Made by a program: the position numbers and the translations under genes
NCBI GenBank assembly: GCA_051294905.1
Contig: CM119371.1
Span: 30,692,001-30,756,000, forward strand
Direction of reading: 5' to 3'
DNA from: Botryllus schlosseri
Taxonomy: Eukaryota
Length of the DNA stretch: 64,000 bases
Part shown: positions 56,150 to 62,920 of the stretch, piece after piece
How the letters are laid out: every line of letters starts with the position of its first letter
Numbering within the stretch: the stretch's first letter is position 1
Notes under the pieces: model-generated
What the model was told of the DNA's origin: nothing
Seen by the model: only the letters and a program-made list of their open reading frames with translations
Databases searched by the model: none

Positions 56150-57504
56150 CGTCACTCCTTCGTTACTGAGGCCATTATCATGAATTTCAGCTCTCAGTGA
56201 TATGAGAAGAAGTCTGTTGGTCGGGGTCATTTCTGAGCAAACCATTCAACCCTTCTCCATTCCTTCCATGGCTGATGGAGCCCTGCACCTGATAAAACGC
56301 ACCCAGGTAATTAGCTATGCCATGTCTGTGGAGTGTGGAGTCGGTGAAGTTGTCCAATGCTAGGCTAAAGTAGTCTACGCGGCAACACATGGTTCAGAAA
56401 ATGCGACTGACATTGCTGTTACTCTTTTTCTCACGGTTGAATCAGACAACTGTAGCTTCGAAATTTGTCAGGTCATGTTGGCCTCGCTGCTAAGTTCTGG
56501 AAACAGCGAATATTCGCACGGCGTGTTGAAGTCCTATTGAAATCACACCCTCTCTAGCAAATTTCTTGGGCTTAGCGACATTCTAAGCAATTTTGAAAGA
56601 TGCGTCTGTAACGTCGCGGCCAATTTTAACAATGCCCGACTTATGGATTGCTGGGCTTGCCATCAAGCTAGCTTCGTTTTTTCTAAGATCAGGCCATATG
56701 TTAAACTCCAGAAGGGACATGCGTAGGCTAGAATCATTTCAAGCTTCGACGCTTCGGTACAACAACTGTTCTTTGACAAATATTACACATCGATTTTCCA
56801 TTTATATCTGGGAAAGCAAATTCATTGATCGACGCAGAGTTACAAACCCAGCTTTCGATGTTCTCGTTTCTAGTACTTGTTTCTGCTCAAACCATTTACG
56901 GTGTGTGAAACACTTTTTAAAAGTGTTCTACGCAGCGGGATTCTCTTGAAGCAGAGTGCAGCCGAATACCGATTCCAAACAATAACAATCTAAACTTCAG
57001 CATATCAAGAAACCAGAACACATCAAAGAATGAGTAATCAAACGAAACAGACAGTTTGTTTGTTTGTTTGTTTGTTTGTTTTTGGAGTATTCATGGTGTT
57101 TGTCGACTACTGTGGTCATTTACACCAGGCCGATATTCTTTGTATTTTCCGTAACTGCCGACTTATAGCACGGCCCACCTCTAGGCTTTTGTAAGGCACC
57201 GCTAACGCGGATGAGGTGGCGAGGAGGAGCCTAGGTAAACCTCCAACACTTAGATATCGGAATTCGGAAGTCGACCTCGGTCGGACTCGAACCCGTACCC
57301 ATTGGTGTTGTAGCCGCGGATTATACCACTGCGCTATCTCGCCACCGAAACAGACAGTGTGATAAGAAAGCTAAGTAGCTAAATTAATATGTAACAATTC
57401 TGTGCTAGTATAGTAATTGCTTCCGTAATGAAAGATGTCGCGGGCCGCAAAATAAACGTCTGAGGGCCGCATGCGGCCCGCGGGCTGCGGGTTGAGAACC
57501 CCTG
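56150..57504 (-). mobile_element. Decayed hAT (Buster/Charlie/GTF2IRD2-like) transposon with transposase N-terminal remnant; its terminus abuts a tRNA-Pro 5' fragment
   Basis: Minus-strand frames at ~56290-56900 give NGKSMCNICQRTVVVPK (BED-like), DASFKIA*NVAKPKK, LQLSDSTVRKRV and YFSLALDNFTD. Terminus GGTTGAGAACCCCTG at 57504. The other end was not found and the left boundary is approximate. Confidence 0.75.
57056..57345 (-). mobile_element. Full-length tRNA-derived SINE
   Basis: A/B-box head (GGTGGCGAGATAGCGCAGTGG...GGTTCGAGTCC), (CAAA)n tail, 13-bp TSD CGAAACAGACAGT (57043-57055, 57346-57358). Confidence 0.92.
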
Positions 57505-57620
57505 GCCTAGATCAACGAGGCGATGGATGCACTTTCTGAACTATTTTAAAATGTTTTATTTGGAAATGACTCCTGAAGTCATAAAAATCAGGGTTGATTA
57601 AAAAACTATAATCTCGTCAC

Positions 57621-58081
57621 GAGCTCGTCCAGGATTTGAATCCTGGACCTCTCGCACCCAAAGCGAGAATCATACCCCTCTAGACCAGTGGTTCCCAACC
57701 TTTTTCGACCGATCGCCCCCTTTTCAAGGCCAACACCGAACATCGCCCCCCAAATTTTGTGCACCGATAATTGGGCATACAGACTGTAATCACCGGCGGG
57801 TTGACTAAAAAGAAAAAAAGAAAAAAAGGTCATCTTTCTCCGCTCAGAGCTGAAAATAACGTTTTTTCTCTCCAAATTGCTAGGTGAATGACTAAAAAAA
57901 AAAAAAAAAAAAGGTCAGCCGTTTTGACGCGTCATCGCCCCCCTATCGCCCCCTTCGCTATTTTCGCCCCCCATCGTCCCCTTTGTCCATTTTCGCCCCC
58001 CTATCGCCCCCTTCGTCATTTTCGCCCCCCTAGATCGCCAAATCGCCCACGTTGGGAACCACTGCTCTAGACCAACTAGCC
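57621..58081 (-). pseudogene. tRNA-Pro(UGG) interrupted by a MITE
   Basis: 3' part 57621-57685 and 5' part 58065-58081 flank the insert. Confidence 0.85.
57686..58064. mobile_element. hAT MITE inserted in tRNA-Pro
   Basis: Perfect TIR CAGTGGTTCCCAAC / GTTGGGAACCACTG; TSD CTCTAGAC; internal TCGCCCCC repeats. Confidence 0.93.
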
Positions 58082-58179
58082 GATCAATGCACTTTCTGAA
58101 CTATATAAAATTGTTTTATTTGAGAATAACTCCCTAATTCATAGATATCGTGGTTAATGAAAAACTATAATGATGCCAC

Positions 58180-58303
58180 GGGCTCGTCCGGGATTTGAAC
58201 CCGGGGCCTCTAGCACCCCAAACGAGAATCATACCCCTAGACTCTAGGGGTATGATTCTCGCTTCGGGTGCGAGAGCTTCCGGGTTCAAACTCCTGACGA
58301 GCC
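58180..58303. pseudogene. Head-to-head fusion of two 5'-truncated tRNA-Pro copies
   Basis: A minus copy (58180-58242) joins a plus copy (58243-58303, CGG anticodon) through GAGAATCATACCCCTAGA-C-TCTAGGGGTATGATTCTC. Confidence 0.85.
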
Positions 58304-58403
58304 TGTGTCACGATTGTAGTTTTTCAATTAACCACGATATCTATGAATCCAGGAGTCATTTCGGAATAAATTTTTTAAAAATAATTCAGACAACGCATCC
58401 GTC

Positions 58404-58480
58404 GGCTCGTTGGTCTAGCTAGGGGTATGATTTTCGCTTTGGGTGCTGAGAGGTCCCGGGTTCAAATCCCGGACGAGCCC
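58404..58480 (+). pseudogene. tRNA-Pro(UGG) with +4 (CTAG) insertion in the D-arm
   Basis: GGTCTAGCTAGGGG instead of GGTCTAGGGG, plus an extra T in the anticodon stem. Confidence 0.8.
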
Positions 58481-58577
58481 GTGGCACCATTATAGTTTTT
58501 CATTAACCACGATATTGATGAATTAGGGAGTTATTTCCAAATAAATCATTTTAAATAGTTCAGAAATTGCATCCGTC

Positions 58578-60384: not shown

Positions 60385-60483
60385 GTGACGAGATTATATT
60401 TTTTTAATTAGGCCCTATATCTATGAATCCAGGAGTCATTTCCGAATAAAATTTTTAAAAATAATTCAGACAACGCATCCGTC

Positions 60484-60560
60484 GGCTCGTTGGTTTAGCT
60501 AGGGGTATGATTTTCGCTTTGGGTGCTGAGAGGTCCCGGGTTCAAATCCCGGACGAGCCC
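60484..60560 (+). pseudogene. tRNA-Pro(UGG) with +4 insertion, duplicate of 58404-58480
   Basis: GGTTTAGCTAGGGG and the same GGTGCTGAG insertion. Confidence 0.8.
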
Positions 60561-61310
60561 GTGGCACCATTATAGTTTTTCATTAACCCCGATATCGATG
60601 AATTGGGGAGTTATTTCCAAATAAACCATTTCAAATAGTTCAGAAATTGCATCCGTCGGCTCGTTGGTCTAGGGCAGGGGTGGGCAAACTTTTGAGCTCG
60701 CGGGCCGCATTCAACATCTGAATCCATTCGCGGGCCGCACTATATAAAATTGGGATTATAAACCAAAATGCAATATTGGTATTTGATTATTGTGAGGACA
60801 TGGACATAATAGATATGCTTATTTAAAACAAAACAAACATTGCTTTGATGATATCATACACGCGTCAGAAACAGTGGCGAGATTTCATAGGCTGGTCAAC
60901 CTCAATGACCAATTTGTCAAAACTATAGAGATGAAAGTCGGTTGTCTCGATTCTTAGAACAGGATTGATATTTAAATCTGTGAGCAGCGATCTGTTCATA
61001 GATTTACTAATTGCTCTTTGGGTTCAGTTCCAGGACACACATTGCTAACAGCATCATAACCATGTTAGATTCAAACACGCTTCTACTATTTTCAGATAAA
61101 ATATAAATACCCTAAATCTATAAGCACGCCACTAAAATAGTTAAAGCTGGAGTGGCCAATCTGAAATCACACTCGTGATCAGAATTATGTCAATCTCGTT
61201 TAGGATTTCTGTGATTTTTAGCAGTTGAAACCTTCCAGACTCTGGGGGCCTTGAGATGGTCGCGTCATAAATTAAACATAAAACTAATATTGGAAGTATT
61301 TACCTTAGAA

Positions 61311-61638
61311 CAGTGGTTCTCAAACTTTTTAAGACACGCTCCCCTTGCGATGGTGAAAGATCTCGCGCCCCCTTATCGTCATATCACAAAACGCAACCAG
61401 GATGCTTGAAAACCTAACGGATAATTTGATGGCATGGAAGGTTACGTCTGTAGATGATAGATTTTTACATATGAAATTCAGACTAAATACAAAGCAATAA
61501 TTAGGAAGTGGGTTCAAATCGCGCGGAGCGCGAAAATTTTTTTCAGTCGAGCTCGGCTTCGCCTTCGCCCCATTCCGATGCCTTCACGCTCTCAAGGGGG
61601 GGGGGGGTGGGGCACGCCCGCCAGTTTGAGAACCACTA
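61311..61638. mobile_element. Nested hAT MITE
   Basis: TIR CAGTGGTTCTCAAACT / AGTTTGAGAACCACTA; TSD CCTTAGAA. Confidence 0.9.
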
Positions 61639-61747
61639 CCTTAGAATTATCATGGCGAAATATACTAAGTAAAAGTTTGATTACTTCCTGAATTAATTCG
61701 ATATTTACTACGCATTTTATCAATATTTTTAATAAGTTTCTTTAGAC

Positions 61748-62684
61748 CAGGGCTGGCCAACCTTTTCAGCCAACGGGCCACATTCGGTTGACGAACTATT
61801 GCGCGGGCCACCAGCCGCGCGAAGCGCGAAATTTTTTTCAAAGGTTATAGGTCAATAATATTGTCACTTGACTATATTGCGGGCCTGCTGTATTTCGCTG
61901 GGCTAAATTTGCGACGACCAGGCTACGCGGCGCCTGGACATATCGATATCGAAAGATGCGACCAACATTCGTGAATTGGTTGGTTGGTTTTGAGGTATTC
62001 ATGGTGTTTGTCAACTACTATGTCATTTACACCAGATCGATATTCTTTATTTATATTCCGTAACTGCCGACTTACAGCACGGCCCACTTCTAGGCTTTTT
62101 GTAAGACACCGCTTACGCGGATGAGGTGGCGAGGAGTAGCCTAGAAAAACCTCCAACACTTGGATATAGGAAATGCGTCAATTATATTATGCCTAGGTTC
62201 CATGGTGAACGGTCTTACTGCGAGTGCAAACGCTAAGTCGCATATGTTGAACGACACTTTGTCTCGTAAACGCGAATATAGTTAGACTCAATCTGATACA
62301 TTAGGCGTTCTTTCATTTTCACAAAGGGGCAACAATATCAAAAACAATATTAAGAAATCAAGTGACAACATGTTGCGCGAAGCTTGTCCAAAATTTTTAC
62401 ATTTGGTAAACCCATCGCAAATTATTCTGCTTTACTATAGTGTAGCCTACGAATATCTACCAATATGTGACTGGCTGATGGATCTGCCAAAGCGCCGTAA
62501 CTGATATTTTAGTCAACATATCTCAAGTGCCAGACACTGATCAAATTTTTGTTTGACCTTGCAAGTTTACAATCTGTGCAATCCATTTTGGTGATATTAG
62601 AAATTTCGGAAATTACTTCGCGGGCCACTCAGAACCTTCTCGCGGGCCACATGTGGCCCGCGGGCCACGGGTTGGCCGGCCCTA
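61748..62684. mobile_element. Nested hAT MITE containing a SINE fragment
   Basis: TIR CAGGGCTGGCCAACC / GGTTGGCCGGCCCT; left target CTTTAGAC, right TSD only partial (TAGAC). Confidence 0.75.
61976..62170 (-). mobile_element. 5'-truncated SINE copy
   Basis: Matches the 57060-57265 body and tail; the tRNA head is missing. Confidence 0.8.
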
Positions 62685-62920
62685 GACTCTCGCGGGCCGC
62701 ACAAAACGGTGTTGCGGGCCACATGCGGCCCGCGGGCCGTAGTTTGCCCACCCCTGGTCTAGGGTTATGATTCTCGCTTTGGGTGCCAGAGGTCCCGGGT
62801 TCAAATCCCGGACGAGCCCCGCCGAGACAACAGATGTTTTTAAATTAACCACGATATCTATGAATTCTGGAGTGATTTCCAAACGAAAATTTCCAAAATG
62901 ATTCAGACAACGAACCCGTC

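Follow-up and report, generated by a model that had tools for sequence, protein, structure and literature searches.

The retroelements Ty1 and Ty3 are tethered to RNA polymerase III (Pol III) and are associated with tRNA genes. Here we describe proline tRNA (tRNA-Pro) genes of Botryllus schlosseri that are split by different hAT-like DNA transposons at one fixed octamer, GTCTAGGG, in and around a window of 64,000 nucleotides (contig CM119371.1, C1:30692001-30756000; assembly of 495 Mb in 219 contigs). Ty1, Ty3 and TRE5-A insert at a distance up- or downstream of the gene through protein contacts and via an RNA intermediate, whereas the elements here use a fixed octamer within the gene itself. 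According to PMC3706591, TRE5-A is likewise Pol III-tethered and resembles the present elements in its association with tRNA genes. Among DNA transposons, the account of Dada by Kojima and Jurka (2013, PMC3706591) describes elements that, as here, occupy one fixed site in tRNA or small nuclear RNA genes, i.e. harmless multicopy targets; Dada is presented there with 6-7 bp duplications, a strict target specificity and its own transposase superfamily. The elements studied here differ from Dada in that they leave 8-bp duplications and are mostly inserted elsewhere in the genome. Pokey (piggyBac) in Daphnia 28S rDNA, as outlined in PMC3706591 and PMC3849761, is similar in that it moves by cut and paste, shows a simple preference for sequence, accumulates at a single position in a multicopy RNA gene and also occurs elsewhere, but it belongs to another superfamily, has a TTAA target and represents a single family, compared with an estimated ~20 hAT-like families here.

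For Charlie/MER1-type hATs, Levy, Schwartz and Ast (2010, PMC2836564) describe NTCTAGAN duplications with a central TA, a motif extending beyond the duplication and fixed hotspots in MIR3, and a target motif of ~14 bp is given for hAT and P elements in PMC3706591. The human MER1/Charlie hotspots as described there share with the tRNA-Pro site the NTCTAGAN-type 8-bp duplications with central TA and the motif beyond the duplication; those in MIR3 (positions 154 and 160) also share the use of one fixed position of a multicopy sequence in both orientations. In contrast to the MIR3 hotspots of that account, the elements here target tRNA-Pro, a functional Pol III gene arranged in tandem arrays; about a quarter of its copies are split, footprints are preserved, and the flank preference is WTG rather than the WW-N-N given for MER1/Charlie. 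The B. schlosseri locus is a clear new instance of a known phenomenon, a hAT hotspot in multicopy sequence, and is notable in that its target is a functional tRNA gene family. A literature search confined to open-access papers retrieved no report on hAT insertions in tRNA-Pro genes.

Sequence was examined in the window, in the 60 kb downstream of it and at five other tRNA-Pro loci, and beyond that by exact pattern counts in the whole genome on both strands. The tRNA-Pro array extends ~47 kb beyond the window end, and ARAGORN identified 12 intact tRNA-Pro genes within the window, all cloverleaves with a Pro anticodon (8 AGG, 3 TGG, 1 CGG). The leftmost ~740 bp of the array (57505-58242, ~2 units) are inverted. 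The array and the elements inserted into it are as follows (MITE, miniature inverted-repeat transposable element; SINE, short interspersed nuclear element).

57505..64000, plus strand: tRNA-Pro tandem array, unit of 171-172 bp (Tandem Repeats Finder periods 171-175, unit tiling)
57686..58064, no strand assigned: element A, a 379-bp MITE in a minus-strand tRNA-Pro, ends CAGTGGTTCCCAACC / GGTTGGGAACCACTG
58770..59808, no strand assigned: element B, 1039 bp, ends CAGTGGTCGGGAACC / GGCTCCCGACCACTG, duplication GTCTAGGG at 58762-58769 and 59809-59816
60675..62756, no strand assigned: element C, 2082 bp with nested elements, ends CAGGGGTGGGCAAAC, duplication GTCTAGGG at 60667-60674 and 62757-62764
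61311..61638, no strand assigned: 328-bp MITE nested within C, duplication CCTTAGAA at 61303-61310 and 61639-61646
61748..62682, no strand assigned: second element nested within C, left end CAGGGCTGGCCAACC, right duplication partly deleted, SINE-like repeat at ~61976-62172
56123..57504, minus strand: element D, a decayed non-autonomous hAT-like copy, with its terminus at 57490-57504 (CAGGGGTTCTCAACCCGCAGCCCGCGGGCC, minus strand) abutting the tRNA site
57505..57521, minus strand: tRNA-Pro positions 1-17, GCCTCGTTG + ATCTAGGC, abutting the D terminus
58235..58250, no strand assigned: two tRNA 3' parts joined head to head at the target octamer, CCCCTAGA-C-TCTAGGGG, right edge of the inverted block

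An initial annotation of this DNA had described A, B and C as three mutually different inverted-repeat elements that duplicate a tRNA octamer, and their coordinates and ends were confirmed from the sequence and by anchored searches. The duplication GTCTAGGG of B and C corresponds to tRNA positions 10-17. That of A, CTCTAGAC at 57678-57685 and 58065-58072, reads GTCTAGAG on the minus-strand tRNA, and the tRNA copy hosting A already reads GTCTAGAGGGG, i.e. it contains two extra bases. No internal sequence is common to A, B and C; since they are unrelated inside, the three insertions are independent events, as had been proposed. A relative of B lies outside any tRNA (window 6069-7266), and an 872-bp copy of C without the ~930-bp nest occupies the same tRNA site 25.6 kb downstream.

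The fourth element, D, had been described as transposase-bearing and as ending at 57504 against the same site. Its terminus does lie there, next to a tRNA fragment (GCCTAGAT+CAACGAGGC) with 3 mismatches to tRNA positions 1-17 on the minus strand, but Pfam detected no transposase domain in 32 stop-to-stop open reading frames (ORFs) between 41936 and 57370 (26 of 42 listed ORFs of at least 60 aa plus 6 from another listing). D aligns to the ~1.2-kb non-autonomous copies of the array only at 57504-57392, 56801-56289 and 56288-56123 (72-83% identity) and is interrupted by a nested ~590-bp insert at 56802-57391; its other terminus was absent from the window at up to 3 mismatches. The sole Pfam match among the 32 ORFs, Vps8_C_schizo, was below its cut-off and was discarded. 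A SINE-like repeat is nested in two of the hAT elements (window 57068-57345 and ~61976-62172); its tRNA-like head at 57270-57345 (minus strand), in which motifs resembling an A box and a B box were recognized by eye, received no ARAGORN call.

Tiling of the unit over the window and the 60 kb downstream gave 110 alignments with 24 large gaps, and the junction was located at the target octamer in 24 of 24, in line with the earlier remark that no insertion was seen elsewhere in the unit. At the octamer, 23 left and 20 right junctions were found on the plus strand, and A and D on the minus strand. The duplications were mostly GTCTAGGG, with GTCTAGAG in the D family and GTCTAGGC and GTCTAGAC once each, and both sides agreed. 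Further insertions at the same site were present in a second array on C1 and in arrays on C2 and C8, and six scattered tRNA-Pro-like genes carried six different element ends. For these scattered insertions, a search over 4 kb revealed no right end at one locus (L045), and the exact right-junction pattern was absent beside the other left junctions. In the whole genome GTTGGTCTAGGGCA occurred 28 times versus 0 for the reversed control, and therefore more often than by chance; 18 of these sites are in arrays, 6 in scattered tRNA-like genes and 4 in an unrelated repeat. By exact pattern, the canonical site was occupied 28 times (including the 4 in the unrelated repeat) and intact 81 times, and about a quarter of the tRNA-Pro copies with a canonical site are split and inactivated.

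Copies of family A, to which element A belongs, number at least 4125 candidates in the genome, and 40 scored copies were 93-100% identical. Perfect 8-bp duplications flanked 29 of 30 copies; the consensus of these duplications, GTCTAGAC, is a palindrome with TA at its centre. None of the 29 copies other than element A was inside tRNA-Pro. One C-type terminus was counted 1874 times in the genome. The element ends start with CAGTG, CAGGG or CAAGG within inverted repeats of 14-16 bp, all in agreement with YARNG, which we take to be the start motif of hAT terminal inverted repeats. The 8-bp duplications (A, B, C and family A), the CAG...CTG ends and the Charlie/MER1-type NTCTAGAN target with central TA therefore fit non-autonomous hATs like those of the Charlie/MER1 type, and the assignment to hAT in the initial annotation holds at this level. 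No protein domain was recognizable in the array inserts among 19 ORFs tested of 31 listed (at least 120 aa, 12 fetched array loci). The hAT dimerisation domain gave at least 2620 candidates in the genome, many of them in long open frames. Two loci were tried and rejected as autonomous partners: L077 (C10:156300-160300) codes for a 648-aa hAT but has different ends (CAGAGATGG) and a non-TCTAG duplication, and the other was a 1124-bp non-autonomous C-type copy. L077 itself contains an apparently intact 648-aa hAT transposase gene in an element with the ends CAGAGATGGAAGCGGGCCGG and the flanks TTTCGACC / TTTCGAAC, and represents a different hAT lineage.

Among 88 contiguous tRNA-Pro copies, 12 (about 8 events) contained +2 to +8 bp inside positions 10-17, and only 2 multi-bp events were found elsewhere in the gene. 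Examples are GTCTAG-CTAG-GG, GTCTAGG-C-CTAGGG and GTCTAGA-C-TCTAGGG, in which parts of both duplication copies are kept. Three such D-loops were located in the window.

58413..58424, plus strand: footprint-like D-loop GTCTAG+CTAG+GG in an otherwise contiguous tRNA-Pro
60493-60504: footprint-like D-loop of the same type, GTTTAGCTAGGG
58587..58596, plus strand: footprint-like D-loop GTCTCTAGGG, +2 bp

Judged from their sequence, the extra bases at the octamer are probably hAT excision footprints. At this one site the array preserves inserted elements as well as footprints and rearrangements, and it would serve as a compact natural archive of how hATs insert and excise.

The initial annotation had proposed a comparison of the insertion rate at tRNA-Pro with that at matched octamers elsewhere, and this was carried out with genome-wide counts. 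A site was regarded as occupied if it was followed by an element end starting CAGKGGT; scoring by a following 'CA' alone was rejected for non-tRNA sites because ~1 in 16 empty sites has CA next by chance. The following counts were obtained, each with a reversed control.

GTCTAGGG: 5793 (reversed control 6028)
GTCTAGGG+CAGKGGT, left junction: 110 (reversed control 1)
Intact GTTGGTCTAGGGGTAT: 81 (reversed control 0)
TGGTCTAGGG: 698 (reversed control 289)
TGGTCTAGGG+CAGKGGT: 38 (reversed control 0)
TTGGTCTAGGG: 210 (reversed control 79)
GTTGGTCTAGGG: 147 (reversed control 26)

Of the 38 TG-flanked junctions, 20 were tRNA-linked and 1 lay in the unrelated repeat, which leaves 17 at other sites. 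As 19 of the 20 tRNA-linked junctions have a GTTG flank and the remaining one (C2:39124089, GATG) was excluded, the CAGKGGT occupancy of tRNA-Pro sites was 19/105 (18%), significantly higher than that of all other GTCTAGGG sites (about 89/5500, 1.6%; p=5e-14). TG-flanked non-tRNA sites, with a denominator taken from the reversed control, were occupied in 17/~306 cases (5.6%; p=2e-4 versus tRNA-Pro). For TTG-flanked non-tRNA sites, i.e. the 63 control sites with a non-G before TTG derived from the counts 210 and 147, the value was 6/63 (9.5%), and the difference to tRNA-Pro was not significant (odds ratio 2.1, p=0.18). An 11-fold excess over plain GTCTAGGG was thus reduced to ~2-fold, not significant, with three flanking bases matched; the proposed comparison yielded an excess over the plain octamer (18% versus 1.6%) and none of significance over TTG-flanked sites. 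The structures, the counts and the flank dependence of occupancy are direct observations. In the 17 TG-flanked non-tRNA insertions, position -3 was A or T in 14. A CAGKGGT end stood beside GTCTAGAC in 258/2705 cases (129 left-junction equivalents, 4.8%) versus 110/5793 (1.9%) for GTCTAGGG; such ends are found next to GTCTAGAC at about three times the rate at GTCTAGGG. Scattered tRNA-Pro genes alone were occupied in 4/39 cases (10.3%; p=1 versus TTG-flanked sites). An unrelated ~970-bp repeat that contains AACGTTG-GTCTAGGG-CCCCCC and shares the 13-mer CGTTGGTCTAGGG with the tRNA was occupied in 4/24 copies, by four different ends; comparison of this repeat with Rfam (E up to 0.1) gave no match. 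Unselected GTCTAG sites in ~155 kb (0/24 occupied) were too few and were superseded by the whole-genome counts, and a tRNA-Glu motif, TGGTCTAGYGGYTAGGAT, had only 2 genome matches and was unusable as a second Pol III control.

The ~970-bp repeat (loci L054-L059, L046, L047, L050, L051 and L066), of which three copies are 97% identical to one another, has AACGTTGGTCTAGGG ~40 bp from its start and is a hAT hotspot in its own right. Two more repeat contexts, ...gacACCNACCTTG-GTCTAGGG (L067, L073) and ...agtttcaaaa...TTTG-GTCTAGGG (L062, L072), contained different hAT families in each, which suggests further sequence-defined hAT hotspots in the genome.

We consider it probable that the tRNA-Pro site is a hAT hotspot set by an extended target motif, ~WTG-GTCTAGAC-CAW, which a multicopy gene carries by chance, and that Pol III tethering is not needed. 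The D-arm of tRNA-Pro, TTG-GTCTAGGG-GTA (positions 7-20, inside the A box), would offer a near-ideal half of this motif to a large group of Charlie/MER1-like hATs with CAGKGG-starting ends. Autonomous hATs elsewhere would supply transposases in trans, the octamer would be cut with an 8-bp stagger, and a non-autonomous element would be inserted. With the gene present in well over 100 copies, the same site would be used repeatedly by many families; elements would also exit and leave footprints, and unequal crossing-over would then spread some occupied units along the array. We infer both the mobilisation in trans and the dispensability of a host factor. Tethering appears unnecessary because the excess over GTCTAGGG shrinks to ~2-fold and loses significance once the flanks are matched, and sequence alone seems sufficient to fit the data because scattered tRNA-Pro genes equal TTG-flanked sites in occupancy (10.3% versus 9.5%) and the non-tRNA repeat with the same 13-mer is used as often. 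The initial annotation had regarded the array as a recurrent landing pad or safe harbour for hATs, either by sequence preference alone or with Pol III-related tethering at the A box; the repeated use of the site stands and sequence preference alone fits best, whereas a need for tethering is not supported by the flank-matched comparison. That the array may be a safe harbour, in that insertions there are tolerated, is plausible. An extended motif on its own can give the impression of gene-specific targeting if it occurs by chance in a multicopy gene, and claims of tRNA targeting therefore need flank-matched controls.

Several findings weigh against this explanation. The twofold excess over TTG-matched sites persists in a test of low power (6/63), and array occupancy (15/66) exceeds that of scattered genes (4/39) with p=0.12. 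Most or all of the 6 occupied TTG-flanked controls are located in other repeats or beside another hAT end, so that unique DNA is not cleanly sampled by this control. With AGGG followed by GTA, the tRNA site matches the motif poorly in its right half, whereas the left half is perfect. Finally, no link to a cognate autonomous element was found at the two loci examined. A boost of up to about twofold by context or local hopping is possible.

A possible, though not a likely, alternative is that such a boost, ~2- to 4-fold, acts on top of the sequence preference, either by the open, nucleosome-poor chromatin of Pol III genes or by local hopping within an array that offers the target every 171 bp. 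Hermes, another hAT element, reportedly prefers nucleosome-free DNA. The boost would account for the higher occupancy of tRNA-Pro (18%) relative to TTG-matched (9.5%) and TG-matched (5.6%) sites and of arrays (23%) relative to scattered genes (10%), and the about 8 footprint-like events would represent elements that exit and possibly re-land close by. However, tRNA-Pro does not significantly exceed TTG-matched sites (p=0.18), the scattered genes show no excess (10.3% versus 9.5%), the non-tRNA repeat with the same 13-mer is equally used (4/24), and segmental duplication inflates the array counts. It appears doubtful that the tRNA-Pro arrays constitute an active reservoir, in which landing boosted by Pol III-linked open chromatin or local hopping, harmless parking of many non-autonomous families and exit are combined. 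If they did, the elements would reshape the array via the inverted block, a 5'-deleted unit variant and composite units.

The 70 junction ends fell into 35 terminal-sequence clusters, and several families were present in both orientations relative to the tRNA. By our estimate from these clusters, ~20 element families are represented, and the insertions, with those in the other arrays and in scattered tRNA-Pro genes included, go back to at least 30 independent events. Nine D-family left junctions carry the variant duplication GTCTAGAG, and family F9 has two copies in the same context. A composite unit of ~1.9 kb, in which the left end belongs to the D family (duplication GTCTAGAG) and the right end to the B family (GTCTAGGG), occurs four times.

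73459, 75638, 90413 and 102091 (continued window coordinates): composite D/B units, the first ~1.7 kb with a mutated B-type right end

The composite units probably arose by a deletion between two adjacent inserts and were later amplified. Segmental duplication is the best reading for the nine D-family GTCTAGAG junctions, the four composites and the two F9 copies. That all inserts go back to one or few events copied in this way is very improbable: as a general account it is refuted, and it is valid for the D, composite and F9 copies only, in which the shared GTCTAGAG, the fourfold composite and the shared context of F9 speak for it. It is at odds with the unrelated interiors of A, B and C, the 35 clusters among 70 ends, the location of insertions not only in arrays, which lie on three chromosomes, but also in 6 scattered tRNA-Pro-like genes, where 6 different ends were found, and the presence of some families in both orientations. 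Least credible of all are dedicated, Dada-like transposons with a transposase recognizing the tRNA-Pro gene, since this idea, although all insertions share one fixed site in a multicopy small-RNA gene where they are largely harmless, is contradicted by the duplication of 8 bp rather than the 6-7 bp of Dada, by thousands of same-family copies outside tRNA genes (0/29 sampled family-A copies in tRNA-Pro) and by the location of about 89 of the 110 GTCTAGGG+CAGKGGT junctions outside tRNA-Pro.

The inverted block is limited on the left by the D terminus and on the right by the head-to-head junction exactly at the target octamer. The odd palindrome at this junction, CCCCTAGA-C-TCTAGGGG, is centred on one base, and its arm symmetry is confined to the tRNA part; it might be a relic of a replicated flanking-DNA hairpin or of aberrant hAT transposition. 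Another form of the unit, present in ~10 copies at loci L001-L005 (e.g. at continued window coordinate 66556, C1:30758556), has lost tRNA positions 1-9, and its spacer ...GCATCC runs straight into GTCTAGGC; the deletion adjoins the target site. This 5'-deleted variant is probably one event that was later amplified. The three anticodons AGG, TGG and CGG are mixed in one array (58404-63850), and at alignment position 33, where the anticodon types differ, 55 of 88 tRNA-Pro copies deviate from the consensus base.

Elsewhere in the window, the same 49-bp tandem array was found five times between ~19000 and 42000 (at 20009, 26113, 30924, 36595 and 40940), accompanied by repeated ORFs and repeated termini, which indicates that a segment of about 4.3-6.1 kb is repeated in tandem. 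An open frame at 4585-6261 (minus strand) contains NACHT and NOD2 winged-helix domains. At 9179-13432 (minus strand), a 1417-aa frame with reverse transcriptase, RNase H and integrase represents the pol domain set of a long terminal repeat retrotransposon.

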